39,004 bases of DNA from Phycisphaerales bacterium (GTDB lineage Bacteria; Planctomycetota; Phycisphaerae; SM23-33), in assembly GCA_003171235.1 (NCBI GenBank), contig PMYM01000101.1:1-39004 (forward strand), in the 5' to 3' direction. This document shows positions 1,446 through 27,077 of this stretch, in pieces. The first letter of the stretch is position 1. Each line of letters begins with the position of its first letter. Position numbers and translations under genes: made by a program. Below the pieces are notes generated by a model. It worked only from the letters and a program-made list of their open reading frames with translations, was not told where the DNA came from and did not search any database.

Positions 1446-1490
1446 CGCTCTACTCCCCGCCACGGGTTGTGTGGCGTCCTTTGCAGGATG

Positions 1491-1697: not shown

Positions 1698-1716
1698 CCA
1701 CTTTTTGAAGGGGCTG

Positions 1717-2763: not shown

Positions 2764-2774
2764 CAGATAACATT

Positions 2775-2808
2775 CGGGGCTGCGCCTCCCGTGGGTGGCA
2801 CAGCCCCG
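2775..2808. repeat. Palindromic element, family 2 (GGGGCTGCGCC...GGCACAGCCCC)
   Basis: CGGGGCTGCGCC-tcccgtgggt-GGCACAGCCCCG. The same arms occur at 5993..6023. The stem has one C.A mismatch on the plus strand, which becomes a G.U pair in a minus-strand transcript. Confidence 0.65.
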
Positions 2809-3882: not shown

Positions 3883-4048
3883 GTTTTCATGTCTTGTCAG
3901 TGGACAAGCTGGAGGCGCAATTGAGCCTTCAGACAAGACATCTAGCGTAACGTGGAGATGGATCTTCCCTAATTGACCAAGTGAGCAGCCGCTCTTGTTC
4001 TACAAACACGGAGACGGGCAGAGCGGTTATTACGAAAGCGAGGATGTG

Positions 4049-5833
4049 ATGGCACGGCACGGTATTCTGCGAAAAAAGGTTGATTCATTACGTAAGTGGT
4101 TCCAGCCGCGCGGCGCGGTCAGTTCACCAATGCTCGAAACAATGGAAGAGCGGCTGTTGCTGTCGACCACCCTGCTGGGGCTGCAACCGCAGGCGCCCTT
4201 CCTGGCATACGACCACAATGGGCAATTGAATTACACGGCGGCCACGCAGTCGTTGGCCATCACCGCCACGCCGCTTTCCTTTCAACTGGATTCTTCAACC
4301 CCGCCGGCTGTGGCCGTTGGGCCTGGCTCTCTTGCCATCAACATCCAGGTGGATAATGACGGCAACCTGATTGGCGGAGTGAGCGGCGACGACCTGGTGA
4401 TCCAGGGCGGCATTGACCTGAACGGCGACGGCGTCGCTGACGTATCCGGAACGCTGCTTACCGGCGAAATTGCCGCTTTCGGGGCCGAGGCGACCGGCAC
4501 GAACGTGGCCAAGTATGATTTCCTTTTCACGCCGACGGGCGGACAACTGGCGTCCTATTACAGCGGGCAGGAACTGGGAATCGTCATGACCAGCGAGCAT
4601 TCCACGTTCACTGGCGATTTCCACGTCGATTCTTCCGGCGGGGCCAAGGGCAACGTGGGCGGCGTCGGGTTTGTGGCCATGCCGGCATCGCTGGGCGATT
4701 TCGTCTGGCACGACATGTACCACGGGCCGACGCACCTGGTGGACGGCGTGCAGGATGCCGGCGAACCCGGTCTGACCGGCGTCACTGTCAACCTGCTGAA
4801 CGGCAGCGGGAACTTCCTCGAGTCGACCACGACAGACGCCAGCGGCTATTATTTCTTCGGCGGACTGTCGCCCGATACGTACATCGTGGAAGTCGCCCCC
4901 GCGAATTTCCAGGCAGGCGGCAGCCTGGAAGGCTGGTATGCCACGCTTCAAGACCAAGGCAATGACGCCACCGACAGCGACGGCAATCCCGTTACGCACC
5001 GTTCCGGCCCGGTCACGCTGGCTTCCGGCGAGAACAATCCGACCGTGGACTTCGGCTTCTTCACAACCGGTATCGAACTGACCAAGACCGGTTCCGCCAC
5101 CGTTTGTCCAGGCGGAACGATCACCTATCACTTCACCGTCACCAATACCGGAGACGTGGTGCTGCACGGCGGGGCGCACGTGTATGACGCCCTGCTGAAC
5201 CCCTGCGGCAGCCATGAAATCTGGAGCAGCGTAATGCAGCCGGGCGATGTGGTGACTTTCGACAAGACGTACAAACTCACCTGCAAGGACACCGGCAAGG
5301 TGGTGAACACTGCCCAGGCGGTAGGCCATCCCATCGGTCCGAACGGCACGGCCCTGGACCTGGTCTATGATGACGCCTCATGGACGACGCAAATTACCTC
5401 GAACAGCCAGAAGCTCTCCAGCATTGCCGGCAGCGTTTACGTCGATTCCGACAATGACGGCCGGCAGGACCGGGGCGAAAGAGGCATCAGCGGCGTCACA
5501 ATCGTTCTGACGGGTGTGGACATGTACGGCAACCAGGTGCATTGCACCACGCGATCCGACTGCGAGGGCAATTACTCCTTCAAGAACCTGCTGGCCGGAA
5601 CCTATACGGTCACCGAGGTTCAACCCGGGAGCTATGTTGACGGCAAGGACAGCCTCGGCAGCCTCGGCGGCGTGCTGGGCAACGACAAGTTCTCACAGAT
5701 CAAGTTGCCGGGAGGCACGCAGGCGGTCGATTATGATTTCGGCGAGCGCCTCAAGACATGCCATCGGCCAAGTTGGCATTTCAATTGCGGAAGCTTCATT
5801 TGCCTGGACTTCAGCAGGCTCTTCGGCTGCTGA
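4049..5833 (+). CDS. Large secreted adhesin-like protein (SdrD B-like / DUF11-like repeats)
   Basis: ATG at 4049 (gaaagcgaggatgtg ATG). LETMEERLLLS motif near the N-terminus. Two SdrD/Cna-B-like modules (GDFVWHD...DGVQDAGEPGLTGVTVNLL...DASGYYFFGGLSPDTYIVEV and IAGSVYVDSDNDGRQDRGERGISGVTIVLTGVD...GNYSFKNLLAGTYTVTEV). One DUF11-like module (LTKTGSATVCPGGTITYHFTVTNTGDVVL). Confidence 0.85.
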   Translation: MARHGILRKKVDSLRKWFQPRGAVSSPMLETMEERLLLSTTLLGLQPQAPFLAYDHNGQLNYTAATQSLAITATPLSFQLDSSTPPAVAVGPGSLAINIQVDNDGNLIGGVSGDDLVIQGGIDLNGDGVADVSGTLLTGEIAAFGAEATGTNVAKYDFLFTPTGGQLASYYSGQELGIVMTSEHSTFTGDFHVDSSGGAKGNVGGVGFVAMPASLGDFVWHDMYHGPTHLVDGVQDAGEPGLTGVTVNLLNGSGNFLESTTTDASGYYFFGGLSPDTYIVEVAPANFQAGGSLEGWYATLQDQGNDATDSDGNPVTHRSGPVTLASGENNPTVDFGFFTTGIELTKTGSATVCPGGTITYHFTVTNTGDVVLHGGAHVYDALLNPCGSHEIWSSVMQPGDVVTFDKTYKLTCKDTGKVVNTAQAVGHPIGPNGTALDLVYDDASWTTQITSNSQKLSSIAGSVYVDSDNDGRQDRGERGISGVTIVLTGVDMYGNQVHCTTRSDCEGNYSFKNLLAGTYTVTEVQPGSYVDGKDSLGSLGGVLGNDKFSQIKLPGGTQAVDYDFGERLKTCHRPSWHFNCGSFICLDFSRLFGC

Positions 5834-5992
5834 CCCAGAGATTGTTGCAGAATAGCAAGACGCCCTTTCCGGGGCCGGTCGCGGTTGACGAAACGGTGAT
5901 CGGCCCCGATGTTCATTTTAATCCCGGCAGTTTACCGCATAATCGGCCACCTTATGAGGACTTCGCGCGGGCGGCATGTGCGGACATGTAAA

Positions 5993-6023
5993 CGGGGCTG
6001 CGCCTCTGTCAGGCACAGCCCCG
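5993..6023. repeat. Palindromic element, family 2 (second copy)
   Basis: CGGGGCTGCGCC-tctgtca-GGCACAGCCCCG, in the same orientation as the copy at 2775..2808. Intergenic, 160 nt after the adhesin stop. Confidence 0.65.
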
Positions 6024-6041
6024 CTTTAACATCAACTTGAA

Positions 6042-6067
6042 TTGCCGCAGGCGAACCTGTGCGGCAA
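6042..6067. terminator. Stem-loop (8-bp stem TTGCCGCA/TGCGGCAA, 10-nt loop)
   Basis: Seen directly in the sequence. Lies between the adhesin gene and TadG-like paralog 2, and 5 nt past the stop of a possible small minus-strand ORF. No clear U-tract. Confidence 0.3.
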
Positions 6068-6213
6068 GGCGCTTATTCCGGAAGTTCCGGAGGTGCGGGG
6101 AATTCCACTTCCTGGCCGACGCCTTCCTGCGTATATTCGGCCCGGATGGAGTTACGCACGTCGTTGACCGCTCCGCCGGGCACGAACTCCACGCCCATAG
6201 CGGGGCCTTGTCG

Positions 6214-6299
6214 TTTTTTTGGAGAAAATCCTACCTTTTTTCCGAAAAAGAGGATTATGATTCTTGTGTACGGTGACATACCAAAATCTGTATTGGGGC
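6214..6299 (+). promoter_or_regulatory. Putative promoter/5' leader of TadG-like paralog 2
   Basis: T7GGA at 6214..6223, T6 at 6236..6241, GAGGATTATGATTC about 80 nt from the ATG, and GTATTGGGGC at 6290..6299. Same order and similar spacing as upstream of paralog 1. Confidence 0.3.
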
Positions 6300-6337
6300 T
6301 GCCATTAAGGCAGCGCAAGCCCTTGCGGGTGAGAGAC

Positions 6338-7648
6338 ATGAACATGTCTAGAGCGAGAGGCATTGTCAACATCTGGGTGGCTCTCTGTTTCCCGCTGTTT
6401 ATAGCCTTCGCAGGCTTGGCGGTGGACACCGGTTTCTGTGTCGTGTCCACGATGAAGCTGCAGGACGCGGCTGATGCCGCGGCCCTGGCGGGCGCTAGCC
6501 AGGTGTTGTTCAACACCGACACCGCCATCTCCGCCGCCCGCGACGCCACGGTCAACACAGGTAAAGCGAACTACGTGGGCGGGCTGGCCCTGCAACTGAA
6601 CCGGAACGATGGCAACTCCCTGACCGGCGAGGTTGTCGTGGGCCACTACGACCGCGCCACCAGCGCCTTCACTAACGCGCCTGGGGATCTGGCCTACGGG
6701 CGGCGCAATGCCGTCATGGTCAACGCCACACGGGCCGATGGTTCGTCCAATCCCAAACTGCCCGCTTTCTTCGGCCCGATCTTTGGCGTTTCCGGCTATT
6801 CCGCCACCCGCACCGCCATCGCCATGACCGGCAACCTGGAGGGGGATGGCGTCATCGTCCTCAACCCCCACGACCCCGGCGCCTTGCACATGAACGGCAA
6901 TCCGACCCTGACGATCAGTGGCGGGAACCTCCAGGTCAATTCCGACGCCAGCGATGCCGTGTCCACCAATGGGAAGCCTACCATAGACGTGGACCTGGCC
7001 GAGATCACCGGCGGTATCTCCAGTGTTGGTCCTTTCACGGGCGAGGTTCTAACCGGCCAGTCCCGCGTGGAGGACCCGCTGGCGGCCCTGCCGGCGCCGG
7101 CCATTGGGACAGACCTGGGAAAAATCAGGGTGACCGGCAACAAGACGGTCAACCTGCAGCCCGGGTACTATTCCGGCGGCATTACGATAACGAGCGGCTC
7201 GGCCGTCCTGGCCCCGGGCGTTTACGTCCTGGGCGGGGCCGGGTTGGACCTGGGCGGCAACGCCAACCTGGACGCCCAAGGCGTGATGTTCTATATCGTG
7301 GGCAGCGGTGCGGTGAACCTCAAGGGCAACGGCGCTGTCAATATCCGGGCCATGGACCCTAACATTGACCATACGGTCCCGGCCGATATAGCCGAAACCT
7401 ACCAGGGCGTTGCCTTCTTCCAGGCCCGCACCAACACAAATGCATCCTCAATCAGTGGCACCAAGGACACCGTTATCGACGGGACGGTTTACTTTCCCGC
7501 CACCAGCCTGGACCTGGGCGGTAATGCCAGTTGGAAATGCACGCAAGTCATCGCCGATACGGTCAGCGTCTCCGGCAACGGGGACATCATGGTAGATTAC
7601 GACGGCCGGTTCCCAGCCTTGTCTCACGCCATCTTCCTGGTGAAGTAA
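6338..7648 (+). CDS. TadG-like Flp/Tad pilus-assembly family protein (paralog 2)
   Basis: ORF 6059..7648, start trimmed to the ATG at 6338 (MNMSRARGIVNIWVALCFPLFIAFAGLAVDTGF...). Collinear with the 81..1445(-) protein along its whole length, roughly 60-65% identity by eye, down to the shared C-terminus ...SHAIFLV(Q/K). Confidence 0.8.
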   Translation: MNMSRARGIVNIWVALCFPLFIAFAGLAVDTGFCVVSTMKLQDAADAAALAGASQVLFNTDTAISAARDATVNTGKANYVGGLALQLNRNDGNSLTGEVVVGHYDRATSAFTNAPGDLAYGRRNAVMVNATRADGSSNPKLPAFFGPIFGVSGYSATRTAIAMTGNLEGDGVIVLNPHDPGALHMNGNPTLTISGGNLQVNSDASDAVSTNGKPTIDVDLAEITGGISSVGPFTGEVLTGQSRVEDPLAALPAPAIGTDLGKIRVTGNKTVNLQPGYYSGGITITSGSAVLAPGVYVLGGAGLDLGGNANLDAQGVMFYIVGSGAVNLKGNGAVNIRAMDPNIDHTVPADIAETYQGVAFFQARTNTNASSISGTKDTVIDGTVYFPATSLDLGGNASWKCTQVIADTVSVSGNGDIMVDYDGRFPALSHAIFLVK

Positions 7649-7798
7649 ACGGGCCTGTCCCAGGCTCTAACGCACCACTGATGCCACACCCCATAAGTAT
7701 CCTATCCCGATTGGCTTGGCCGCTGGGCAGAATGTATGTTGCTTGTGTGTGATCTGCGGTCGGGCAAGGCAAGGCCTGGCCGCACTGGAGAGTGGCAC

Positions 7799-9199
7799 AT
7801 GCGTAGAGCGGCGGACAATCGTGGCATTGCCTACATCCTGGCCTTGGCCCTACTGGCGACTTTTTCGGCCATGGCGGTGGCCTACGCCGCCCAGACAAAT
7901 TCCAGCATGGTGGTGGCCGACAACACGGTGCACATCCAGGACGCTCAGTTCCAGGCCGAAAGCGGCATGAGCTATCTCTCCAGGGTGCTTCAGTCCATAC
8001 CCATGCTGCCCGGAGCCACCAATCAGCAGGCGCTGACCACGCTGAACCAGAATCTTCCTTCCGCCATCGGCAGCGCCAACTTGAACGGGCAATCCATCGG
8101 CTTCGACGGCACGTCCACGATCACCGTGCCCTTCATCAAGACCGATTCGAGCGGCCATGGTTTTGGGGCGCAACTGGCCTTATCGGGGACCGACTTCGTG
8201 CTGACGGTCACCGGGCGGAATGCCGACCCGGCAAGCCAGGCCCGCGGCCCCAACGCCATCCGCAAGATCAGCCTCAGGTTCCAGGCCGCCCAGAAGACGC
8301 CGGGGGCCTTTAACTACGGCGTGGCCAGCAAGAGCCAGATCACCCTCACCGGCAACACGAGAATAGACAGCACGCTCAACCCCAAGCCCAAGATTTATTC
8401 GGGAACCTACACCCACATCGACGCCGTGGACATCACCGGCAACTGCGCCATCGGCAGCGACCTGGACATCGCCAATCCCGACGGCATGGTGTCTCTGACG
8501 GGCAATTGCTCCATCGGCGGGGCCACCGTCGCCAGCGGGCATATTCAGGATCACATTAACATCGGGGTGGGGCAGACCGACTTTCCCCAGCCCGACCCGT
8601 CGGTTTTCGCCCCCTTTGCCACCAACATCGTCGATTCCTCCACCAACACCAACGGCAACAAGACCTTCACCAACATACGCATACGGGCTAACACCAACCC
8701 GACATTCTCGGGCAACATAACCCTCCAGGGCGTGGTGTACATTGAAACGCCCAACGTGGTGAGTTTCTCCGGCAACCTGGCCATCACCGGCGTGGTGGTC
8801 ACCCAGGACGCCGGGGACGGCAACCTGGCCAATAACAGCGTCAACTTCACCGGCAACACCTCGGTCCTGCCGGTGACCAGCCTGCCCAACACGGCCCCAT
8901 TCGCCACCCTGCGGACCATGCCCGGCACCTTCCTGTTGGCACCGGGTTTTGCCGCCAGATTCACGGGCAACTTCGGCACCATCAGCGGCACCATGGCCGC
9001 CGACTCATTCCAGTTCACCGGCAACGCTGGCGGCACGGTCAACGGCTGGGTGATGAACTGGGGCGATACGGCCTTCAGCATGACCGGCAACAGCAACCTG
9101 GTCGTGAACCCGCCGGCCAACGGCAGCATGCCGCCGGGATTCGGGGCTTCCACCCAGTTCCTGCCTGAGCAGGGCACCTACAGCGAACCGGCGCCTTAA
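7799..9199 (+). CDS. Pseudopilin/PilX-N-like anchored protein with T/S-G-N beta-helix repeats
   Basis: ATG at 7799 (MRRAADNRGIAYILALALLATFSAMAVAYA, a PilX/TadG-type N-terminal hydrophobic segment). At least 9 recurrences of (L/F/I)(T/S)GN (ITLTGNTRID, DITGNCAIGS, SLTGNCSIGG, FSGNITLQG, FSGNLAITG, FTGNTSV, FTGNFGTISG, FTGNAGGTVNG, MTGNSNLV). Confidence 0.7.
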   Translation: MRRAADNRGIAYILALALLATFSAMAVAYAAQTNSSMVVADNTVHIQDAQFQAESGMSYLSRVLQSIPMLPGATNQQALTTLNQNLPSAIGSANLNGQSIGFDGTSTITVPFIKTDSSGHGFGAQLALSGTDFVLTVTGRNADPASQARGPNAIRKISLRFQAAQKTPGAFNYGVASKSQITLTGNTRIDSTLNPKPKIYSGTYTHIDAVDITGNCAIGSDLDIANPDGMVSLTGNCSIGGATVASGHIQDHINIGVGQTDFPQPDPSVFAPFATNIVDSSTNTNGNKTFTNIRIRANTNPTFSGNITLQGVVYIETPNVVSFSGNLAITGVVVTQDAGDGNLANNSVNFTGNTSVLPVTSLPNTAPFATLRTMPGTFLLAPGFAARFTGNFGTISGTMAADSFQFTGNAGGTVNGWVMNWGDTAFSMTGNSNLVVNPPANGSMPPGFGASTQFLPEQGTYSEPAP

Positions 9200-13867: not shown

Positions 13868-15457
13868 ATGAAACCAGAAGGAACGATGGCCCGACCGCTG
13901 CTGATGCTGGCGACTGTCCTGGTGGGATTTCTGGCCCTGGCGCCAGCCGCCGGGCCGACGTCGAGGCCTCTTGAGAGTAATGCCTCCCAGCCGGCCAGCC
14001 AGATCGACCTGTTGGTGTTCGCCCAGTTGAAGAAGTTGGGGGTTCAGCCGGGCGAGGTCTGCTCGGACGGCGTTTTTATGCGGCGCGTGTACCTGGACGC
14101 CATCGGCACGCTGCCCACGGAGGAGGAGACCCGCGAGTTCCTGGCCAGTAAAGACCTAGACAAGCGACAAGCGCTGGTCGGTCGCCTGCTCGAGCGGAAG
14201 GAATTCGCCGACTATTGGGCCATGAAGTGGAGCGACCTGTTGCGGGTCAAGGCCGAGTTCCCGATCAACCTTTGGCCTAACGCCGCTCAGGCGTATCACC
14301 ATTGGATTTGGGAGTCCATCAACCAGAACAAGCCTTACGACCGGTTCGTGCGGGAACTGCTGACGGCAAGCGGCAGCAATTTCCGCGTGCCGCCGGTCAA
14401 CTTCTACCGCGCCATTCAGAGCAAGCAGCCGCAGGCGATCGCCCAGGTCGTGGCCCTGACCTTTATGGGCGCGAGAGCGGAGGCCTGGCCGAAGGATCGG
14501 CTGGCGGGCATGGCGGCCTTTTTCGCCCAGGTCGGGTATAAGTCCACCCAGGAGTGGAAAGAGGAGATCGTCTTCCTCGATGTCAGCCAGGCCGCCGCCG
14601 CGGCCACTCAGCCGGCGCCGGTATTTCCCGACGGCACGGCCGCCAGGCTGGTTGCCGGCGGCGATCCGCGCGAGGCCTTCGCCGACTGGCTCATCGACCC
14701 CGGCAACCCGTGGTTTACCCGGAGCATCGTCAATCGCATCTGGTGCTGGTTGCTGGGTCGAGGCATTATTCACGAGCCCGACGACATTCGGCCGGACAAC
14801 CCCCCGAGCAATCCCCAACTGCTGGCCTACCTGGAGCGAGAACTGATCGCCTCGCACTATGATCTCAAGCACATCTATCGCTTGATCCTGACGTCCAGGA
14901 CTTACCAGCTCTCCTGCGCCGCCCCCACGTCCGGGCCGACCAGCGCGGCCAGCTTTGCCCGGTACCAACTGCGCCGGCTGGAGGCCGAGGTGCTCATCGA
15001 CGCCATCTGCCAGATTACCGGCACTACGGAAAAGTACTCCAGTCCGGTGCCGGAGCCCTTTACGTTCATACCTGAAGGCCAGCGGTCAGTCACGCTGCCC
15101 GACGGCAGCATCAGCAGTCCGTTCCTGGAGATGTTCGGCCGCCCACCGCGGGACACGGGCCTGGAGTCTGAGCGGAACAACCGCTCGACGGCCGACCAGC
15201 AACTGCACCTGCTCAACTCCAGCCACATTCAGCGAAAGATCGAGCAAGGCCCCAAACTGCGGGCTCTGATTCAGGGCCGGGCCACTCCGCGCGAAACGAC
15301 CACGCGGCTTTACCTGACGATATTGTCTCGATTCCCGACCGAGGACGAACTCAAGATCGTGGACGCATATTTCAAGGCCGCCGCCAATGGGCGCGACGCG
15401 GCCGTTGACCTGGCGTGGGCCCTGATCAACAGCGACGAGTTTCTGTATCGACATTGA
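13868..15457 (+). CDS. DUF1549/DUF1553 domain protein
   Basis: FMRRVYLDAIGTLPTEEETREFL (DUF1549-type) followed by a DUF1553-type C-terminal half (YQLRRLEAEVLIDAICQITG..., LHLLNSSHI, ALINSDEFLYRH). The alternative start ATG at 13886 has the better RBS (agaaggaacg). No cytochrome-c module. Confidence 0.8.
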   Translation: MKPEGTMARPLLMLATVLVGFLALAPAAGPTSRPLESNASQPASQIDLLVFAQLKKLGVQPGEVCSDGVFMRRVYLDAIGTLPTEEETREFLASKDLDKRQALVGRLLERKEFADYWAMKWSDLLRVKAEFPINLWPNAAQAYHHWIWESINQNKPYDRFVRELLTASGSNFRVPPVNFYRAIQSKQPQAIAQVVALTFMGARAEAWPKDRLAGMAAFFAQVGYKSTQEWKEEIVFLDVSQAAAAATQPAPVFPDGTAARLVAGGDPREAFADWLIDPGNPWFTRSIVNRIWCWLLGRGIIHEPDDIRPDNPPSNPQLLAYLERELIASHYDLKHIYRLILTSRTYQLSCAAPTSGPTSAASFARYQLRRLEAEVLIDAICQITGTTEKYSSPVPEPFTFIPEGQRSVTLPDGSISSPFLEMFGRPPRDTGLESERNNRSTADQQLHLLNSSHIQRKIEQGPKLRALIQGRATPRETTTRLYLTILSRFPTEDELKIVDAYFKAAANGRDAAVDLAWALINSDEFLYRH

Positions 15458-15500
15458 GTCTCCCGCAGGCGACTACGGGCGACGATATGAGCATGACCAT

Positions 15501-16895
15501 ATGAGCAACAAGAATCCTGCGAAATTCATCGCTGACCTGTGTCAGTTGCGAATCCCCCGGCGGGATATGCTGCGCCTGGGGCTGGCCGGGGCGGCGGGCT
15601 GGCTGTTGTCCAGGGGCGACTCTCTGCGCGCCCTGGCCGGCGCTGCCACGCAGGCTAGCACAGGCGTCTCGCCGGTGCTACCAAGAGCCAAGGCCAAGGC
15701 CGTCATCCAGATATGGCTGTGGGGCGGGCCGGCGCAGCTTGACACTTTTGACCCCAAGCCCGATGCCGGCAACGACTATTGCGGCCCGTTGAAAAGCCCA
15801 ATCGCCACCAATGTGGATGGGATTCGCATCTGCGAACTGCTGCCGCAACTGGCCAAGCAGGCCGACAAGTACTCCATAATCCGCAGCATGACTCACGGGG
15901 TGAACGCCCACGAGACGGCCTCCTACATGGTTCAGACCGGCCGGCCGGCGGGGGAGCGGCTGGTGTACCCGTGCGCCGGGGCGGTGGTGTCGGTGTTCAA
16001 AGGCTACGACGCCGGCTACAAGGGGCAGATTCCGCCGTATGTAGTGCTTACGGAACCGCAGGGGCGATTCTCCGAATCAGGCTTCCTGGGAATGCGCTAC
16101 AAGCCCTTTGCCACCGGCGGCGACCCGGCCCAGAGCCGCTTCAACGTCGAGGGCATTGTCGCCCAGGGCATATCAGACCAGCGGCAACTGGAGCGGCGAG
16201 ACCTGCTGGGCAAACTCAATACCCTGGGTCAGGTCATGCCGGGCGATCCCCAGTTGGCGGCCTCGGAGAATGCACGCAAACAGGCCTACGACCTGATGCT
16301 TGGAGAGTCTGCCAAGCTGTTCGACCTTTCGCAGGAGAAAAACGAGCTGCGCGACCTGTACGGCCGCACGACCTTCGGGCAGTCCTGCCTGATGGCCAGG
16401 CGGCTGGTCGAGTGCGGGGTGCCATACGTCACCATCAATTACAAGGGATGGGACACGCACAAGCAGCATTTCCAGGCCATGCGGCGGATGCTGCCCGACA
16501 TGGACAAGGGCTTTGCGACCTTGCTGCAGGATTTGTCAGACCGCGGCCTGCTGGACAGCACCATCGTCTGGTGGGGCGGCGAATTCGGCCGGACACCTAA
16601 GATCCAGTGGGAGGCGCCCTGGAACGGTGGGCGCGGCCACTGGGGCAACGCTTTTTCGGTCGTCGTTGCCGGCGGCGGGTTCAAAGGTGGGCGGGTCGTC
16701 GGCTCCACCGACGCCCGCGGCGAGGAAGTGAAAGACCGGCCGGTATACCCGGTTGATCTCATTGCCAGCATGTACGAGTTGCTGGGCATAGATCCCGACG
16801 GGCAACTGCCCAATGCCCAGGGCCTGTCCGTCCGGGTAACGCCCTCCAAGGCCGACGGGGTCAAGATGGGCGGGCGGCTGAAGGAGATCATGTGA
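15501..16895 (+). CDS. DUF1501 domain protein (sulfatase/phosphatase-like fold, Tat signal)
   Basis: Twin-arginine motif IPRRDMLRLGLAGAAG. WGGPAQLDTFDPKP and WWGGEFGRTPKI are typical DUF1501 signatures. It follows the DUF1549/1553 gene, as is usual for this pair. Confidence 0.8.
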   Translation: MSNKNPAKFIADLCQLRIPRRDMLRLGLAGAAGWLLSRGDSLRALAGAATQASTGVSPVLPRAKAKAVIQIWLWGGPAQLDTFDPKPDAGNDYCGPLKSPIATNVDGIRICELLPQLAKQADKYSIIRSMTHGVNAHETASYMVQTGRPAGERLVYPCAGAVVSVFKGYDAGYKGQIPPYVVLTEPQGRFSESGFLGMRYKPFATGGDPAQSRFNVEGIVAQGISDQRQLERRDLLGKLNTLGQVMPGDPQLAASENARKQAYDLMLGESAKLFDLSQEKNELRDLYGRTTFGQSCLMARRLVECGVPYVTINYKGWDTHKQHFQAMRRMLPDMDKGFATLLQDLSDRGLLDSTIVWWGGEFGRTPKIQWEAPWNGGRGHWGNAFSVVVAGGGFKGGRVVGSTDARGEEVKDRPVYPVDLIASMYELLGIDPDGQLPNAQGLSVRVTPSKADGVKMGGRLKEIM

Positions 16896-19288: not shown

Positions 19289-20401
19289 ATGCAGTTGGAA
19301 TCTCGGAGTATTACCGGGTCGAAGGCAGTGGAACTCTACTTGACCGCCATCCCCGGCCCAGCCGTGGGGGCAGACGGCGAGGCTGAGCAGGTTTTTGGCG
19401 CGATCGTCGGCGAAGCCGCCCGATGCGGGGGCAGGGTGTGCCAACTGAGGGCCTTCGTGCCGGAGGGTCGGCTGGAAGCCTATCAACGGGCATGGCAAGC
19501 GGCTTTTGGGCAGGGGCAGGCCGAATGCCCCTGCAACTGGCTTCAGGCCGGTCCGTCTGTTCCCGGAGGCGTGCAGGCGCACGTGATTGCCGCGCCCGTC
19601 GAGTGGAAGCCCCTGCGCGATCGCCGGGGCGCCCAGGCGGGCTGGTTGTGCAGTAATGGCAAGACTAGTTGGGCCATCGTTGGCGGGCTATGCCTGCCAC
19701 GATCAGCGGATGACGCGGCTTCCACCCAGGAGGCGTTCGAGGCGGCCGAAGCCCTGCTGGCCCAGGCCGGTATGGGCCTGGGAGATGTGGCGCGAACATG
19801 GTTTTTCCTGGACGATATCCTTGGCTGGTATGACCGGTTCAACGTTGGCCGGAGTCAAGTCTTCCGCCGTCGCGGTTTGCTGGGGCCTGCCCAGGGCGGC
19901 GGCGTGAACGTTCCGGCCAGCACCGGCATCGGCGTTTCCCCGGCCGGTGGCGCCCGGCTGGCGATGGACTTGCTGGCTGTCCGCGGCGAGAAAGGGTGCG
20001 TTCTTCGCCATCCCGCGGCCGGCAAGCAGCGATGCGCGTATGAATACGGGTCCGCCTTCGCCCGCTCGGCCGAGGCTGCCACCCTCGGCGGGCGGACAGT
20101 GTATGTCTCCGGCACGGCCGCCATCGATGTCCAGGGCAAGTCGTGTTTTGCAGGCGACGCCGGCAGCCAGATCAGAATGACCCTGGAGAACGTGCTGGCG
20201 GTTCTGTCGGACATGCGCTGCGGCGCGGAAAACGTGGTGCAGGCCATGGCCTACTGCAAAACGCCGGCCGTCGCCGCCCGGTTCATAGAGAGCTTCCAGC
20301 GTACGCTTTCCTGGCCGTGGGTTGTGGTCGTCGGCGACGTCTGCCGAGCCGATCTTGTTTTCGAGGCGGAGGTGACGGCCTGCCAGCCGGCTAACGGCTA
20401 G
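19289..20401 (+). CDS. Chorismatase-like protein (FkbO/Hyg5/XanB2 family, tandem RidA/YjgF-like folds)
   Basis: VARTWFFLDDILGWYDRFNVGRSQVF...NVPASTGIG...CAYEYGSAFARSAEA...VYVSGTAAIDVQGKSCFAGDAGSQIRMTLENVLAVL follows the remembered family pattern R.WNY..DI....RY..FN.GR..(A)F...PA...G...Y.Y...F.R....(F/Y)(I/V)SGTA(S/A)I.G......D...Q...TL.N. Confidence 0.6.
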   Translation: MQLESRSITGSKAVELYLTAIPGPAVGADGEAEQVFGAIVGEAARCGGRVCQLRAFVPEGRLEAYQRAWQAAFGQGQAECPCNWLQAGPSVPGGVQAHVIAAPVEWKPLRDRRGAQAGWLCSNGKTSWAIVGGLCLPRSADDAASTQEAFEAAEALLAQAGMGLGDVARTWFFLDDILGWYDRFNVGRSQVFRRRGLLGPAQGGGVNVPASTGIGVSPAGGARLAMDLLAVRGEKGCVLRHPAAGKQRCAYEYGSAFARSAEAATLGGRTVYVSGTAAIDVQGKSCFAGDAGSQIRMTLENVLAVLSDMRCGAENVVQAMAYCKTPAVAARFIESFQRTLSWPWVVVVGDVCRADLVFEAEVTACQPANG

Positions 20402-20843
20402 GCCCGGCACGAACGGGTCCGAATACGGCATCGCAAGCCTCGGCGGCATATTCCCGGGAGTAGGGTCCAGACCCACGTGGTCGTGCGATGCTTACCAGGC
20501 TGGAATTCATGCTGTCAGCGATCATCCGGCCCGGCATGGCTGGCCGGACCGAAGGCCGTGACAGAAAGTTCAGTGCCGCCGGGGGGTATAGCAAACAAGG
20601 GCATTTGGGGATCGCTGGATTATGCCAGGCTCTTTAGTTATGAAGTTTTTCCAGTTGACTGCGTTAAGCTTACAGTGCTCGTGCAGCCTGATGCAGTGAT
20701 GGCGCGTAACGCCAGACCTTCGGTGTTTTAGTATGACGCTGTTGGCGGCTTTGTAGAAGCCAGTGGCAGCGACGCGTAAACGATGCAGCCACCAGGTGTG
20801 AAACGCTGGTTGTCCTCTGTTGTCGCACCTGTTGGCCTTTGGC

Positions 20844-23800
20844 ATGATGGATCGCAAGCTTGGTGAAAAGAGTATGAGCAGTTCCGGACAGGAGTGGGCC
20901 AGGGAAGGTACACGGCCGGTGCTGGCGTCCCATCTGGCAGCCTTTGCGGCTTTAGTGCATCGATATCGAGGGGAGGATGACCTGCGCCTGTGGGTTACCC
21001 ACCAGGCCGATCCCAGCCCGGATGGGCTATCCAGGCCTGCCCAACCATCGCTGCAGAGAATATCACTAGGCGACGATCCCACTGTTGAGGACCTGCTGAG
21101 CCGCGCGGGCTGCGTTCTGGCCGCGATTGGCGGCCCGGCCATTCATCTCGAACTGATGGGTCGTATCCATGTGACCTGGGAAGATGGGGATGGCCAGGTT
21201 GAACCGTCCGGGGCCACGCGGGGTTTCACCCTGTTGCTGGAACTGTCGCCCGCCGGCCAACTGTCAGCGAAGTTGTTCCATCATGATCGTCTTTGCCCGG
21301 GCACGACGCCGCTCCTGATGGACGGCCATTTTCGCACGCTTCTGGAAAGCTTGGCCGGCGACCGAACGGCCCAAGTCAGCCGGCTGCCCATGATTACTCC
21401 AGATGAGCGCCACACAATCCTGGAGCGCTGGAGCGGCCCCGCACATGATCCCGAGTTGTGCCGTGACGAACTGCTGCACGAGCTGTTCGAGGCACAGGTT
21501 GATGCCCGGCCGGGGCAAATTGCCCTGGAGTGTGCCGGCGAGCAAATGACTTATGCCCAGTTGGACGTGCGGTCCAATCAACTGGCCTGTCGCTTGCGTT
21601 CAGGTGGCATGCGGGCCGGGGACTTTGTGGGCATCCATCTGCCCCGTTCAGCGGACGTCGTTATCGCCATACTGGGGGTGCTCAAGGCCGGGGGGGCGTA
21701 CGTGCCGCTGGATAGCGACTATCCCGCCGACCGCGTGCAGTACATCTTGAACGACTGCAAGGTCCAATCGCTGATCACGGTGTCCAGCCTGGCGGCCCGG
21801 CTGGAGCCCGGGACGTGGTCCGTTGTGCTGATGGATAAGCAGCCGGACAAATCACCCAGCCAGCCGTCGCAACGTGTTGCTTGCCGCGCCGTTGGCGTCA
21901 TCCCTGACAACGCATGTTATGTCATTTATACCTCCGGGTCCACCGGCCGACCGAAGGGCGTGCTGATCACTCATCGCAACGCCTGCAACCTTGTTCGCGG
22001 CGAGGGGCGGATATTCGGCGTTGTGCCGGATGACCGGGTGTTCCAAGGCTTCTCTGTCGCCTTCGACGCATCGGTAGAGGAAATCTGGCTGGCGCTTTTT
22101 GCCGGGGCGACGCTGGTGGTAGGCACTGCCGATATGGTGCACGCCGGCCCAGCCTTGGCGGGTTTGCTGGCTCGAGCCAAGGTCACTGTGTTTTCCACAG
22201 TGCCCACGCTGCTCTCAACATTTGAGGAGGACATCCCTAGCCTGCGTCTGCTGATCCTGGGCGGCGAGGCCTGCACGCAGGACCTGGTCCGGCGCTGGTG
22301 CCGGCCGGGGCTGCGCGTGGTGAATACGTACGGGCCCACCGAAGCCACGGTAATTGCCACTTACGCGGATTGCGAACCGGACAAGCCGGTCACCATCGGA
22401 CGGGCTGCGCCTAACTATCGCACATATATCCTCGACCGCCATCTGCAGCCTGTGCCGGTGGGGGTATGCGGCGAGCTGCACATCGGCGGCGTGGGCGTTG
22501 CGGCCGGATACCTGGGCCGCCCGGAGCTCACGGCGGATAGATTCGTTCCCAATCCCTTCATGAACGGCCAGGGCGGCCGGCTGTACAAGACCGGCGACTT
22601 GGTGCGGTATTGCCTGGACGGGCAGATCGAGTTTGTCGGCCGGCTGGATACGCAGATCAAGCTGCGCGGTTTTCGCATCGAACTGTCGGAGATTGAGAGC
22701 GTGCTGCTGCGGTGTCCGGCTGTCCAGGCTGCCGTGACGGTCGTGCGCGAAGATTCTCCAGGTCTGCAGCAATTGGTCGGCTACGTCGTGCCCCGGCAGG
22801 GCCAGGACGTGGATGAGGATGCCATTAAGGTGATCCTCCGCGCCCAGTTGCCGGTGTTCATGGTGCCGGGGCGCCTTGAAATCGTGGACAAGTTGCCCAC
22901 GCTGCCTAGCGGCAAGGTGGACCGCAAGCGTCTGCCGGCGCCGCGCCCTCGGCAAGTCCAGCCAGCCGAGAACGGCGGGGCTTTCGTTGGCGACTTGGAG
23001 CCGCAACTGGGGGCGACTTGGCGGGAGCTGTTTGCGCCGACGGCGGTGGGGCCGCTGGACGATTTCTTCAAGGATCTGGGAGGACACTCCCTGCTGGCGG
23101 CACGCATGGTTTCCCGGATGCGGCAACGCCCCGAGTTCTGCGACCTGTCCGTCCTGGACGTTTACAACTTCCCGACCGTGCGAACTCTGGCAGCCGAACT
23201 GCGGAGCCGGCATGAAGCCGTCTCCCGAATTCCTGGCGCCGGCGCCAGTCCCCTCCCCGTGCGCCCGACCTCCCGAGCGGGCTATGGGCTGTGCGTCCTG
23301 GCCCAGACGGTGAGCTTGTGGGTTATCGCAGGCCTGTTCTCCATGCAATGGCTGACGCCATACTTGGCGTATTGTTGGCTCATCGAGCGCGGCATGGGGG
23401 TCATCGATGCCATCGCCGTCTCCCTGGCAGTGCTGCTGGCGTTTTATCCACTGCTGATGGCCGCGTCTATTGCAGTCAAGTGGGCGGTAATCGGCCGCTA
23501 TAAGGCCGGGGACTACCCCTTGTGGGGCTGGTACTACCTGCGTTGGTGGTTTGTCAATCAGGTTCTGTCGGTAGTCCCGATCGACTACCTGGCGGGCACG
23601 CCCCTGTTATCGTTGTATTACCGGCTCATGGGCGCTCGCATTGGGCACAACGTGTACTTCGGCGCAGATAACATCAGCGCTTTCGACCTGGTAAGCGTGG
23701 GCGACGACTCAAGTCTAGGCATCGAAACTATGCTGATGGGTTACTCACTAGAGGGGGGGCGCCTGCGGTTGGGACCGGTGACGGTGGGCCGCGGCTGCTT

Positions 23801-26222
23801 TATCGGCGCCCGGTCAGTGCTACGGCCCTATACCGTGATGGAGGATGGCGCCCGGCTGGAGGATCTGAGCCTGCTGCCCGAAGGCGGAAGGATTCCGCGC
23901 GGTCAGACGTGGATCGGTTCTCCGGCCAGGCCGATTTGGCAAACGAAGAGGCAGACTGAAGCCATTCCTCCAGCCGTTCGCCCGGGCCGGCTGCGGAGAG
24001 CGGCCTTTGCCATGCCGTATGTCCTGGGGGTGCTGCTCGTGCCGGCAGTGTGCCTGATCGCCCTGTTCCCCGGCTTGATCTGGATCAACTACGTCACGAG
24101 GGAGTACGGCGGCTATTGGTTCCTGTTATTGGCGCCGGCGGTAACCCTAGCCTTCGTGCTGCTCATGGCGTTAGAGATCGTGCTGGTCAAATGGTTGCTG
24201 CTGGGACGGGTTCGGCCTGGCACCTATGACGTGCACGGCTGGTTCTATTTTCGCAAGTGGTTTGTCGACCAGTTAATGGACCTGAGTCTGGACTTGCTTG
24301 GTCCGCTGTACGCGACACTGTACTTGGCCCCGTGGTATCGACTGTTGGGCGCCAAGCTGGGGCGCCGCGCCGAGGTCTCCACGGCAAGCGCCACTTCTCC
24401 CGACCTCTTGGCCATTGACGACGGCAGCTTCATAGCCGACGCGGTCTGCCTGGGCGCGTCGCGCGTGGAGGGCGGCCGGGTAACCCTTGCCCCAACTCGC
24501 ATAGGCAAACGGGCTTTCGTCGGAAATAGCGCGTTTGTGCCGGCTGGAGCGGTGATTGGCGACGATGTCCTGATTGGTTGCATGTCCGCCCCGCCACAGT
24601 CGCCAGACGATGCCGCCCGCGCCGGCACTTCCTGGCTGGGCTCGCCCGCGTTTTTCCTGCCCCAGCGACAGGAAAGCACTGCCTTTTCGGCCGAACAGAC
24701 ATTTCGCCCGTCGCGTCGATTGGTGCTGCTGCGGGCGTTCATAGAGTTCTTCCGCATCACTCTTCCTATCACGTGCTTTGTGGCCTTGACCAGCCTGCTT
24801 ATCACGGTCGTAATTGACTTGCGGCAGGTTTCGACGCCGTACCTGGTGCTGGCGTTTCCGGCCTTGTACCTGGGCTTCGGTGTAGCGGCGGCCTTGGTAG
24901 TGGTGGCCTGCAAGTGGCTGCTTATGGGCCGATATCGGCCGGCGGAGAAGCCCCTTTGGAGTTCGTTCGTCTGGCGGACGGAACTAGTCACGGCCATGCA
25001 CGAGCACCTGGCCGACCCGTTCCTGGTGATGCTGCTGCTGGGCACGCCGTGGGTGTGTTGGTTCTTCCGGCTGCTGGGGGCGAAGGTAGGCCGGCGCGTG
25101 GTCATGGAGACCACGTACCTGACTGAATTCGATCTGATAACAATTGGCGACCGGGCTGTATTGGGCAGCGAGTGCACGATTCAGACCCACTTGTTCGAGG
25201 ACCGGGTCATGAAGATGTCCACTATCGATATTGGCAATGATTGCACGGTTGGCGCCGGTTCGATTGTGCTGTATGACACGCGTATGGAGAGCCGCTCGGC
25301 TTTGGGAGACCTCTCGCTCCTAATGAAGGGCGAGGATTTGCCGGCGGACACGCAATGGGAGGGTACGCCGGCCCGTCTGCTGCCTGCAAGAGAAGTGGCA
25401 GGTGGCCGGCAGCCGATGCCAGATCCGGGTGATCATCGAGAACCCGCAAAGGCCGGCCCTGCTGCACCCGAGGTGAGTTTCCTGTTCTCACTTGACCAGT
25501 ACGACGCGCACCCAACAGGCCCCTGGGTATGGGTGCTCGACTGCAATCACGCGGGCGGCAATGTCGGCCTGCCGTTAGCTGATACATCCGGCGCATTGCT
25601 TCAGGGCGAAAAAGAGCCGCCATCGGAAGAAACTCATCTGTCTGGCAGGGATCGTGCGCTTGGGGTCGATCGACTGCCGGCCCGAGACCTATTGCGCCGC
25701 CTGATCGGCATGCACCTTGGGCTCCGGCCCGAAGAGGTTGCGCTGGACGTGAATCCGCAGGGAGGGCTGCTGCTGGCTGCCGAGCGCATGCCCGCTTGTT
25801 CCATGGCGGAGATGCTGCAGATAAACATTGCACATTCCCAAGACGTGCTGGTTGCCGGTGTGAGTCTTACCGGCCGGATCGGTGTGGACGTTGAGGTGAT
25901 GCGACCGGAAATCGACCTGACCACCCTGCCCGGCGAGTGCTTCACCGTGTGGGAACGCCAGCATCTGGAGACGCTGTCGGCCGACAAGCGAGTCATTGGC
26001 TTCTACACTCTCTGGACGGCAAAGGAGGCATTCGTTAAGGCGATTGGGCATGGCCTGTTCTTTGGCCTGAATCAGGTCGAGTTGACACTGGAGCCGGATG
26101 GCTCTGCCCGCCTGGCCCGCGTCAACGGCCGCAGCGATTTGGCCCGGGCCTGGCGAATTGTTCACCGGGTCGTGAACGTTGGCGGCCTGCCCGCGGTTGT
26201 TGCCGTGGCCTTGGGAGAGTGA
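20844..26222 (+). CDS. Membrane-embedded single-module NRPS of the Pls/PosA (poly-amino-acid synthetase) type with fused C-terminal PPTase
   Basis: 1800-aa ORF (20820..26222). The first ATGs are at 20844, 20847 and 20874, so the start is uncertain. See the domain sub-features: C-lobe remnant, A, PCP, 3x[TM pair + hexapeptide repeats], Sfp-type PPTase. Confidence 0.85.
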   Translation: MMDRKLGEKSMSSSGQEWAREGTRPVLASHLAAFAALVHRYRGEDDLRLWVTHQADPSPDGLSRPAQPSLQRISLGDDPTVEDLLSRAGCVLAAIGGPAIHLELMGRIHVTWEDGDGQVEPSGATRGFTLLLELSPAGQLSAKLFHHDRLCPGTTPLLMDGHFRTLLESLAGDRTAQVSRLPMITPDERHTILERWSGPAHDPELCRDELLHELFEAQVDARPGQIALECAGEQMTYAQLDVRSNQLACRLRSGGMRAGDFVGIHLPRSADVVIAILGVLKAGGAYVPLDSDYPADRVQYILNDCKVQSLITVSSLAARLEPGTWSVVLMDKQPDKSPSQPSQRVACRAVGVIPDNACYVIYTSGSTGRPKGVLITHRNACNLVRGEGRIFGVVPDDRVFQGFSVAFDASVEEIWLALFAGATLVVGTADMVHAGPALAGLLARAKVTVFSTVPTLLSTFEEDIPSLRLLILGGEACTQDLVRRWCRPGLRVVNTYGPTEATVIATYADCEPDKPVTIGRAAPNYRTYILDRHLQPVPVGVCGELHIGGVGVAAGYLGRPELTADRFVPNPFMNGQGGRLYKTGDLVRYCLDGQIEFVGRLDTQIKLRGFRIELSEIESVLLRCPAVQAAVTVVREDSPGLQQLVGYVVPRQGQDVDEDAIKVILRAQLPVFMVPGRLEIVDKLPTLPSGKVDRKRLPAPRPRQVQPAENGGAFVGDLEPQLGATWRELFAPTAVGPLDDFFKDLGGHSLLAARMVSRMRQRPEFCDLSVLDVYNFPTVRTLAAELRSRHEAVSRIPGAGASPLPVRPTSRAGYGLCVLAQTVSLWVIAGLFSMQWLTPYLAYCWLIERGMGVIDAIAVSLAVLLAFYPLLMAASIAVKWAVIGRYKAGDYPLWGWYYLRWWFVNQVLSVVPIDYLAGTPLLSLYYRLMGARIGHNVYFGADNISAFDLVSVGDDSSLGIETMLMGYSLEGGRLRLGPVTVGRGCFIGARSVLRPYTVMEDGARLEDLSLLPEGGRIPRGQTWIGSPARPIWQTKRQTEAIPPAVRPGRLRRAAFAMPYVLGVLLVPAVCLIALFPGLIWINYVTREYGGYWFLLLAPAVTLAFVLLMALEIVLVKWLLLGRVRPGTYDVHGWFYFRKWFVDQLMDLSLDLLGPLYATLYLAPWYRLLGAKLGRRAEVSTASATSPDLLAIDDGSFIADAVCLGASRVEGGRVTLAPTRIGKRAFVGNSAFVPAGAVIGDDVLIGCMSAPPQSPDDAARAGTSWLGSPAFFLPQRQESTAFSAEQTFRPSRRLVLLRAFIEFFRITLPITCFVALTSLLITVVIDLRQVSTPYLVLAFPALYLGFGVAAALVVVACKWLLMGRYRPAEKPLWSSFVWRTELVTAMHEHLADPFLVMLLLGTPWVCWFFRLLGAKVGRRVVMETTYLTEFDLITIGDRAVLGSECTIQTHLFEDRVMKMSTIDIGNDCTVGAGSIVLYDTRMESRSALGDLSLLMKGEDLPADTQWEGTPARLLPAREVAGGRQPMPDPGDHREPAKAGPAAPEVSFLFSLDQYDAHPTGPWVWVLDCNHAGGNVGLPLADTSGALLQGEKEPPSEETHLSGRDRALGVDRLPARDLLRRLIGMHLGLRPEEVALDVNPQGGLLLAAERMPACSMAEMLQINIAHSQDVLVAGVSLTGRIGVDVEVMRPEIDLTTLPGECFTVWERQHLETLSADKRVIGFYTLWTAKEAFVKAIGHGLFFGLNQVELTLEPDGSARLARVNGRSDLARAWRIVHRVVNVGGLPAVVAVALGE
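20907..21434 (+). other. Domain: C-terminal lobe of a condensation domain (remnant; no HHxxxDG region)
   Basis: aa ~30-205: SHLAAFAALVHRYRGEDDL..., DPTVEDLLSRAGCVLAAI..., FTLLLELSPAGQLSAKLFHHDRLCPGTTPLLMDGHFRTLLESLAGDRTAQVSRLPMITPDERHTILERWSG. This is the typical end of a C domain plus the C-A linker. The N-terminal lobe is absent. Confidence 0.5.
21462..22934 (+). other. Domain: adenylation (A) domain
   Basis: Core motifs are present in order: MTYAQLD, LKAGGAYVPLD, YVIYTSGSTGRPKG, FDASV, NTYGPTE, GELHIGGVGVAAGY, YKTGD, GRLDTQIKLRGFRIEL, LPSGKVDRK. Confidence 0.9.
22992..23204 (+). other. Domain: peptidyl carrier protein (thiolation) domain
   Basis: FFKDLGGHSLLAARM contains the phosphopantetheine-attachment Ser (aa 757, codon tcc at 23088..23090). 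Confidence 0.85.
23277..25385 (+). other. Domain block: three tandem [TM pair + left-handed beta-helix (hexapeptide)] repeats, Pls/PosA 'terminal domain' type
   Basis: Each repeat carries two hydrophobic helices, then VKWAVIGRYKAGDYPLWGWYYLRWW / VKWLLLGRVRPGTYDVHGWFYFRKW / CKWLLMGRYRPAEKPLWSSFVWRTE. Hexapeptide-like runs follow (e.g. VSVGDDSSLGIETML, VTVGRGCFIGARSVL). Each repeat closes with QTWIGSPARP / TSWLGSPAFF / TQWEGTPARL. Confidence 0.8.
25482..26219 (+). other. Domain: Sfp-type 4'-phosphopantetheinyl transferase fused in frame
   Basis: INIAHSQD (cf. FNISHS), RIGVDVEVM (cf. (V/I)G(V/I)D(I/L)E) and FYTLWTAKEAFVKAIGHG (cf. W(S/T)xKE(A/S)xxKxxG). Preceded by a Pro-rich linker, with no stop codon between it and the third repeat. 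Confidence 0.75.
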
Positions 26223-26225: not shown

Positions 26226-27077
26226 ATGAGTGTGGTGTCTGGATGCGAAAAGAGCCCTTGGCGCCGCGCGGCTTGGTGCTTGTTGCTGGCGATTGCCATG
26301 GTCGGTACTGGTTGCCGCAAGACCAAGCCCGACGCCAAGGTTGAAGTACAGCAAAACCACCGGGAGATGGTCGTTCATCTGGGCCACAATGTCACTATGA
26401 GGCTGATGCTTCTTCCTGCCGGGCAGTTCAAGATGGGTTCGCCTGACGCCGAAGAAGGCCGCGGGGAGGACGAAGGGCCGGTGCGGCTCGTTACCCTCAG
26501 CAAACCTTTCTACATCGCCGTCACCGAGGTCACACAGGACCAGTACGAGGCGGTAATGAGCGACAATCCCAGCACCTTCGAGGGCGGCGCCAACCCGGTT
26601 GAGGAGGTTTCCTGGGAAAAGGCGGTCGCGTTCTGCGAGAAGCTGTCCTCCATATCGGGCAAGACCTTCCGTCTGCCCACTGAGGCCGAATGGGAGTACG
26701 CCTGCCGGGCGGGCACGCGGACGGCCTATTGCCGTGGCGACAGGCAAGAGGATCTCATGAAGGTCGGTTGGTTTTGCTTTGATGCGACGGTGGTCAAAAC
26801 AACGCGGCCGGCAGCCAGTCTGCAAGCCAATCCCTGGGGTCTATACGACATGCATGGCAATATCTGGGAGTGGTGTTCCGACTGGTATGCCGAGGACTAC
26901 TACGCCGCCCGTAACAATCAATTAGATCCAATAGGCCCAACTACAGGAACGGAACGGATCCTGCGCGGGGGCTCCTGGTCCGACGACCCCGAAGACTGCC
27001 GCTCTGCCTATCGCGAGAGCCAGCCGCCGGACTATGCGGACGACGATATCGGGTTCCGAATTGTCTGTCAGGATTAA
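26226..27077 (+). CDS. FGE/SUMF1-family (formylglycine-generating-enzyme-like) lipoprotein
   Basis: ATG 3 nt after the NRPS TGA (gagTGAttgATG). Signal with lipobox LLAIAMVGTGC. RLPTEAEWEYACRAG, GLYDMHGNIWEWCSDWY and RGGSW are classic FGE-sulfatase-domain motifs. Confidence 0.8.
   Translation: MSVVSGCEKSPWRRAAWCLLLAIAMVGTGCRKTKPDAKVEVQQNHREMVVHLGHNVTMRLMLLPAGQFKMGSPDAEEGRGEDEGPVRLVTLSKPFYIAVTEVTQDQYEAVMSDNPSTFEGGANPVEEVSWEKAVAFCEKLSSISGKTFRLPTEAEWEYACRAGTRTAYCRGDRQEDLMKVGWFCFDATVVKTTRPAASLQANPWGLYDMHGNIWEWCSDWYAEDYYAARNNQLDPIGPTTGTERILRGGSWSDDPEDCRSAYRESQPPDYADDDIGFRIVCQD

Follow-up and report, generated by a model that had tools for sequence, protein, structure and literature searches.

Among the nonribosomal peptide synthetases (NRPSs), enzymes of the Pls/PosA type make antimicrobial cationic polymers, of which epsilon-polylysine is an industrial food preservative, and heterologous production of such polymers normally needs a compatible 4'-phosphopantetheinyl transferase (PPTase) to be supplied. 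In the published study of PosA the enzyme was primed in vitro with added Sfp; it is encoded in a single-gene operon, PPTase fusions are not mentioned, and the sequence network presented was limited to a length range of 1100-1800 amino acids (aa) (PMC10522769). PPTases integrated into the synthase polypeptide itself are known from fungal fatty acid synthase (FAS) alpha, where an AcpS-like PPT domain lies at the C-terminus, from fungal polyketide synthases (PKSs), from the enediyne PKSs (PKSE) and from polyunsaturated fatty acid (PUFA) synthase-like pfaBC fusions (PMC6042109, PMC3909215, PMC13291983). The actinomycete type I PKSs SACE_2343 and SAV_7361 likewise carry an integrated PPTase, in these cases of Sfp type (PMC6042109), and reports of integrated PPTases from bacteria have been called "quite few" (PMC6042109, PMC3909215, PMC13291983). 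For a Pls/PosA-PPTase or NRPS-PPTase fusion no description was found in the literature searched, which, given that most subscription journals lay outside the coverage, is weak evidence. Automatic annotation has already recognised the PPTase domain in individual records. The present analysis concerns a gene with just such an organisation, lying within a stretch of 39,004 nucleotides (the whole of which is referred to here as the window) of contig PMYM01000101.1 from a Phycisphaerales bacterium.

The gene occupies an open reading frame (ORF) of 1800 codons, 20820..26222 on the + strand, which on translation proves to be a single frame with zero internal stops, and within which, as a sequence-only reading of this DNA had proposed, an Sfp-type PPTase is fused in frame to the C-terminus of an NRPS. 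We consider it probable that the product is a membrane synthetase of the Pls/PosA type to which a formerly separate, downstream PPTase has become fused via a linker, and that the resulting protein, which would load a basic diamino acid, most likely primes itself. What the analysis establishes is the domain architecture, the conservation of the catalytic residues, the fold, and the fact that both fused and adjacent arrangements recur. The features that matter most, with residue numbers counted throughout from codon 20820, are:

20844..26222, + strand: whole gene, Pls/PosA-type NRPS with C-terminal PPTase, 1792 aa from ATG 20844
25377..25472, + strand: Pro/Ala/Gly-rich interdomain linker (LLPAREVAGGRQPMPDPGDHREPAKAGPAAPE), read from the sequence
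25476..26219, + strand: Sfp-type PPTase domain, 248 aa (aa 1553-1800)
25833..25835, + strand: His1672 (in INIAHS), equivalent to Sfp His90; near-invariant column in an alignment of 55 sequences
25881..25895, + strand: GVDVE motif, in which Asp1690 and Glu1692 are equivalent to D107 and E109, which bind Mg in Sfp; invariant in the 55 sequences
26013..26039, + strand: WTAKEAFVK motif, in which Glu1736 is equivalent to Sfp E151 and Lys1740 to Sfp K155; invariant in the 55 sequences

The peptides quoted in the sequence-only reading (RDLLRRLIGMHLGLRPEEVALDVNPQGG, INIAHSQD, IGVDVEV and WTAKEAFVKAIG) are all present in the + strand translation of 25482-26219, and the Pro-rich linker that it described (AGGRQPMPDPGDHREPAKAGPAAPE) lies immediately upstream in the frame of the PPTase. 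Position 25482, where it had placed the start, is indeed in frame with the ORF, of which 26219 marks the final sense codon, but the PPTase domain begins some two codons earlier, near 25476. The GC content at third codon positions (0.56-0.78) remains coding-like in the synthetase frame right through the linker and the PPTase. Pfam family ACPS (PF01648) matches aa 1686-1779 with 58.3 bits (E 9e-16, cut-off 25), and NCBIfam HetI matches the domain with E 7e-26. Using phmmer, aa ~1667-1765 can be aligned with residues 85-180 of Sfp (1QR0/4MRT, E 4e-6), and aa ~1620-1759 with human AASDHPPT. In a library of 1.84 billion representatives, 5457 proteins match at E<=1e-10, and nearly all of the 150 matches listed have the size of a stand-alone PPTase (170-320 aa). 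Matches of this strength are well outside what chance would produce. The 55-sequence alignment, made with stand-alone relatives, includes W1732 as a further invariant column and bears out the Mg-binding acids that had been proposed, namely the D and E of GVDVE and the E of KEA. Like other enzymes of the subtype named WxxKEAxxK (PMC6042109), the window domain carries this motif, as WTAKEAFVK.

An AlphaFold2 (AF2) model of aa 1545-1800 has a mean predicted local distance difference test score (pLDDT) of 85 and a predicted template modelling (TM) score of 0.83. When this model is compared with the PDB using Foldseek, the best match is Sfp in complex with coenzyme A (CoA) and a peptidyl carrier protein (4MRT; E 4.7e-13, TM 0.66, target-normalised), and the other top matches are AASDHPPT (2CG5, TM 0.65, query-normalised, and 2C43) and PcpS (7BCZ), TM values ranging over 0.58-0.67. 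Chains of the AcpS type cover only half of the model (query-normalised TM ~0.33), and the fungal FAS PPT domain (2WAT) matches over one lobe only (E 1.6e-4). The predicted structure is, in other words, that of a two-lobe, pseudo-dimeric PPTase of the Sfp type (group II, about 230 residues), rather than of the ~120-aa AcpS type.

As to the host protein, the earlier description of it as an NRPS was right in kind, but it is not a generic one, since it belongs to the Pls/PosA family of membrane synthetases. The domains upstream of the linker are:

20928..21419, + strand: condensation-domain remnant, C-terminal lobe only, without HHxxxDG, read from the sequence
21486..22934, + strand: adenylation (A) domain; PF00501 288 bits, PF13193, TIGR01733 458 bits
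23037..23198, + strand: carrier (T) domain; PF00550 30.6 bits, cut-off 20.8
23301..25373, + strand: Pls/PosA terminal domain; TIGR02353 692 bits, cut-off 423, aa 828-1518

The terminal region consists of three tandem hexapeptide-repeat domains, each with a pair of membrane helices ahead of it and with the Hexapep matches falling in the soluble parts; Kyte-Doolittle hydropathy gives six hydrophobic segments (822-842, 857-891, 1060-1093, 1096-1131, 1310-1335 and 1340-1371). Taken together, the TIGR02353 terminal domain, the one A-T module and the six-helix layout point to a single-module membrane synthetase resembling those for epsilon-polylysine and delta-polyornithine, and not to a multimodular assembly line. 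In PosA, Asp235 and Glu239 hold both amino groups of the diamino-acid substrate (PMC10522769). Both residues are found in the A-domain pocket of the window protein, where the motifs FDASVEEIW, NTYGPTEATVIA and SGKVDRK could be located and used as anchors to read a specificity code of D-A-E-T-I-G-T-V-I-K, identical in the orthologue P0122 described below. This code resembles what we take to be the Lys code, DAESIGSVCK. Because of the two acidic residues shared with PosA and the Lys-like code, the substrate is likely to be a basic diamino acid. The attachment serine of the carrier domain is Ser757 (23088-23090), within GGHSL (aa 754-758). Ahead of the A domain, alignments of NRPSs from the PDB and NCBIfam to the window protein begin only at about aa 130-166, corresponding to the end of condensation domains, and Pfam Condensation gives no match in the window protein; the truncated remnant (the first ~200 residues) is nonetheless kept in P0122. 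To our knowledge, characterised Pls enzymes start at the A domain.

When the linker and PPTase were used as a query against the same 1.84 billion representatives, the top two matches were both fused proteins. A 6.2-kb contig (L001) from a different metagenome carries the complete gene for one of these, P0122 (1890 aa), which is 51% identical to the window protein end to end, over ~1900 columns and with the same domain order; the other, P0121 (L005), is cut off by the edge of its contig, and in the fragment a single frame runs from the third tandem domain through a Pro/Ala linker unlike that of the window into the PPTase. A further ORF, P0124, stays open through a Pro/Ala linker up to the edge of its contig. 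The window linker has 32 residues and is followed by some 15 more that are poorly ordered, and those of P0122 and P0121 are of comparable composition, but unrelated to it in sequence and length. The residues for metal binding and catalysis, and the C-lobe as a whole, show strict conservation between fused orthologues that are only ~45% identical in the PPTase domain, which supports the view that the PPTase is active.

A second, shorter fused form is found in six GTDB species genomes from Holophagaceae, Geothrix or Acidobacteria (L013, L016, L020, L023, L027 and L031) and in four metagenome proteins from Geothrix or Holophagaceae (P0020, P0067, P0074 and P0100). Its PPTase, of ~170-200 aa, is without the long N-lobe helix and the His of SHS, while keeping GxDxE and WxAKEA; an AF2 model of the Holophagaceae form, with a pLDDT of 54 from five sequences, is too poor for the fold to be read. 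What looked like another type of C-terminal extension, of ~235 aa in ten Pls loci, was rejected as an artefact, the matches having begun in the second tandem domain of proteins that end normally.

Relatives with a stand-alone PPTase gene next to the synthetase gene, the other arrangement that the sequence-only reading had envisaged, also exist, some of them with PPTases closely related to that of the window. In L002, where the last residues of the Pls are ...WEGTPARR...SPHA*, the ATG of the PPTase overlaps the Pls stop (ATGCTTGA), while the overlap between PPTase gene and Pls stop is 4 nt in the P0123 contig and 11 nt in L092. In these separate-gene relatives the Pls tail stops 26-60 residues past ...PAR, and a separate ATG starts the PPTase. 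In one other case (L007, 5950-7010) a complete Pls gene is followed, in a different frame, by a PPTase ORF that opens with collapsed Pls-like text (VVIGRFKRGRYPLW...WFVDH...IDIGSRCSVGSGSAVLYD); this opening looks like what is left of a tandem unit after deletion or, alternatively, like a chimera produced in assembly.

A scan of the genome collection (one genome per GTDB species) with the PPTase alone as query found no relatives; a query alignment comprising the third tandem domain and the PPTase succeeded, yielding 575 Pls-family loci. The best 80 of these were classified using a hidden Markov model built from 236 stand-alone PPTase relatives, with the following result:

PPTase fused, short form: 6 of 80 loci, all from Holophagaceae, Geothrix or Acidobacteria
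PPTase gene directly downstream on the same strand: 20 of 80 loci, from Bacteroidota, Verrucomicrobiota, the Bacillus cereus group, Janthinobacterium, Myxococcales, Holophaga, Planctomycetota and "delta proteobacteria"
PPTase within a few kb: 4 of 80 loci
No PPTase in the fetched flanks: 50 of 80 loci, 45 of these 50 with at least 800 nt of downstream sequence

The sequence-only reading had regarded in-cis fusions as rare in NRPSs; within the Pls/PosA family a linked PPTase turns out to be common rather than exceptional. A metagenome scan with the generic pattern WTAKEA returned mostly ordinary PPTases, the only Pls-linked ones being those in L092 and L120. In a rough neighbour-joining tree of the PPTases, calculated without support values, the window PPTase clusters with P0121-P0126 and two adjacent PPTases from deltaproteobacteria, the fused forms of Holophagaceae cluster with the adjacent forms of Holophaga, and the PPTases of Bacteroidota and Bacillus and those of Verrucomicrobia fall in other clades. 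This grouping suggests that fusion happened independently at least twice and that PPTases were recruited to Pls on more than one occasion; the clade of the window PPTase itself holds both adjacent and fused members. On such comparisons the link between PPTase and Pls is recurrent, and fusion would be the end state of a series leading from adjacency to fusion rather than a one-off event. One member of the same clade, P0127 (39% identical to the window PPTase; L089/L169/L170), is encoded downstream of genes for a ketosynthase and a free-standing acyl carrier protein, so that the clade is not exclusive to Pls.

Several points weigh against the reading proposed here, and they are best considered together with the alternatives to which they lend support. 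The most obvious of these alternatives is that the fusion is an artefact of assembly or sequencing, in which an indel error of 1-2 nt has joined two genes, one for Pls and, overlapping it, one for the PPTase. The nearest separate-gene relatives differ from the fused state just by reading frame and a stop, and this small difference can be read in two ways: fusion should arise easily, but a single indel error could equally mimic it. None of three public fragments that are at least 90% identical to the window covers the fusion junction, so that in this lineage they have no bearing on the fusion either way, and the junction consequently rests on one contig; by our estimate, moreover, an open linker of 32 codons is not in itself improbable in DNA of 62% GC. 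The survey proportions, including the figure of 26 of 80 loci for fused and directly downstream forms together, are upper estimates, because the ranking query contained the PPTase. Set against all this, the same fusion occurs in independent assemblies at 40-51% identity (L001, L005 and probably L006), and the six Holophagaceae-type genomes are fused too, their linker being different and their PPTase domain shorter. The window sequence has neither the stop that ends the Pls tail of separate-gene relatives nor a plausible internal start, a search of the linker for the start of a free PPTase having revealed no convincing start signal. The existence of independent fused orthologues makes an artefact unlikely, and taking all the evidence into account we would give this explanation a very small probability indeed.

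A different possibility is that the fusion is real but the PPTase is weak or dead, serving as a docking or structural module or persisting as a relic, with a stand-alone PPTase elsewhere priming the T domain. It is in the N-lobe that evidence of this kind is to be found, and here the earlier suggestion of a typical N-terminal half was only partly right: the helix cited is present, but neither the LSxDExxRAxRF helix that should precede it nor the GKP motif is conserved. The position of the former is taken by the following element:

25566..25667, + strand: low-confidence insert in the N-lobe, probably disordered (pLDDT <50, model residues 39-72)

This insert is acidic and Pro-rich and has none of the consensus residues; presumably the helix that it replaces is the one that in Sfp supplies ligands (K28/K31) for the 3'-phosphate of CoA. 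In addition, the GKP loop is GGL in the window domain and in P0122, the Ser ahead of the His (Sfp S89) is Ala in the window domain, PF22624 (AASDHPPT_N) was not detected in a Pfam scan of the window protein, and none of the NCBIfam equivalog cut-offs is reached (91 bits against 370 for HetI, 53 against 174 for AcpT and 44 against 225 for AusB), which leaves the domain outside every named NCBIfam PPTase equivalog. Several nearby Arg residues could perhaps substitute for the missing elements. This degeneration is stronger in the fused window protein and P0122 than in adjacent-gene relatives, which carry GRL or GRP in place of GGL, and the Holophagaceae fused forms, without the His and the long helix, have gone further still. 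The strict conservation already described, however, is the pattern expected under purifying selection for catalysis, and the remainder of the AF2 model is very confident; overall we regard a weak or dead enzyme as unlikely. If the PPTase is instead active, it might act chiefly on other carrier proteins in trans, as the general Sfp-type PPTase of the cell. Sfp-type PPTases are often promiscuous, and the setting of P0127, beside a ketosynthase and a stand-alone acyl carrier protein and away from any Pls, is in keeping with such a role. A tether to a membrane protein would nevertheless be an odd site for a general PPTase, the tight and recurrent linkage to Pls genes across many phyla points to a dedicated pairing, and there are no other carrier-protein genes within the window, making a chiefly in-trans role in our judgement very unlikely.

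Our preferred reading therefore remains that of a self-priming synthetase, for which we infer the activity of the PPTase, its target in cis, and the substrate and product of the enzyme along the following lines. A dedicated Sfp-type PPTase gene, of the kind that in relatives lies downstream and overlaps the Pls stop, would have been joined to the synthetase in frame, with a flexible linker in between. The six membrane helices would form three hairpins and, since the number of membrane segments is even, the PPTase should face the cytoplasm, as do the A and T domains. The 32-residue linker, together with the loose residues that follow it, could then let the PPTase reach the T domain, which presumably has to visit the tandem domains in any case. 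Using CoA and Mg2+, the PPTase would place 4'-phosphopantetheine on Ser757 of its own T domain, whether within one chain or between the chains of an oligomer, and the one-polypeptide synthetase so primed would load a basic diamino acid and polymerise it independently of any PPTase of the host.

Turning to the boundaries of the gene and its surroundings, the earliest candidate start is TTG 20820, while the public gene call, on a contig of 41.7 kb, starts at ATG 20844 and gives the product of 1792 aa. A third candidate, ATG 20874, is the start that in alignment matches the N-terminus of P0122 (MSSPV...); for a product starting there no exact public record was found, the recorded version beginning at 20844. 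Scans for Rfam elements or a riboswitch found none in the 440-nt spacer upstream of the synthetase, and promoter and terminator scans gave only background levels. Immediately downstream is one further gene:

26226..27077, + strand: lipoprotein-like FGE-sulfatase/PvdO-like protein, starting 4 nt past the NRPS stop, after GGGAGAG

Because of this 4-nt spacing behind GGGAGAG, it is probably co-translated with the synthetase. The same neighbour also follows the end of the PPTase in one of the fragments that are at least 90% identical (L088), but is not conserved beside P0122 or P0121.

Some 440 nt upstream of the NRPS lies a gene (window 19289-20401) for an FkbO/Hyg5-N plus RidA-like protein, with a chorismatase match of 47 bits against a cut-off of 325, and next to the fused fragment P0121 there is a gene for a 3-deoxy-D-arabino-heptulosonate-7-phosphate (DAHP) synthase/chorismate mutase (L005, 1073-2215). 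These two could reflect a link to the shikimate pathway, or be coincidence. A functional tie between the synthetase and the FkbO/RidA-like gene was rejected, given the weak match, the distance and the fact that this gene is not found beside the orthologues. The surrounding genes are typical of Planctomycetota (DUF1549/DUF1553 and DUF1501; window 13868-16895 and 78-9199), and the same two regions also encode Tad/Flp-pilus-like proteins, a PEP-CTERM protein and an SdrD-B-repeat protein. The window contains no further NRPS, PKS or carrier-protein gene and no second PPTase; the NRPS is solitary, not part of a larger biosynthetic cluster.

A natural self-priming single polypeptide would be a convenient one-gene part for polymer production and for mining in uncultured phyla. 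The recurrence of both adjacency and fusion suggests that housekeeping PPTases do not act well on carrier domains of the Pls type, and in the full, trimmed and half-size versions of the fused PPTase nature provides a test of how far the Sfp fold can be reduced when enzyme and substrate are tethered. A more general proposal, which we offer tentatively and regard as more doubtful than the reading of this one gene, is that Pls synthetases of many phyla depend on a dedicated, co-located PPTase that has been welded on at least twice (in a planctomycete-type lineage and in Holophagaceae), and that the tethered PPTase is progressively shedding the parts of its N-lobe that bind CoA. If that were true, these proteins would represent a reduced, tether-dependent class of integrated PPTase derived from Sfp-type enzymes, and would offer a portable one-gene route to cationic polymers.

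When set beside the characterised members of the CHPA/NAPAA family, Pls of Streptomyces albulus (epsilon-poly-L-lysine) and PosA of Acinetobacter baumannii (delta-poly-L-ornithine), the window protein has the same A-T module, three tandem domains and six helices. In those enzymes the third tandem domain is the last, and the PPTase has to come from outside, whereas the window protein adds the linker and PPTase as well as the condensation-domain remnant at its N-terminus. Pls loci with an adjacent PPTase gene likewise encode a synthetase followed by a PPTase, the stop of the first gene usually overlapping the start of the second, but make two polypeptides where the window makes one. Sfp of B. 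subtilis, AASDHPPT and PcpS share with the window domain the two-lobe fold, GxDxE, WxxKEAxxK and the five residues equivalent to those of Sfp; they are free proteins, however, while the window domain is fused, has its first N-lobe helix replaced and has GGL for GKP. In known integrated PPTases the domain is likewise C-terminal on a synthase that bears a carrier, and is thought to prime its host, but these hosts are FAS and PKS enzymes, in contrast to the membrane-bound polymer synthetase of NRPS type seen here. The type III PPTase of fungal FAS, in particular, is AcpS-like and of ~120-140 aa; the window domain, being Sfp-like and of 248 aa, is not a member of that type, although it may prime in cis in a similar way. 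An integrated PPTase of Sfp type hosted by a membrane synthetase of Pls type is, in this sense, a variation on a known theme.

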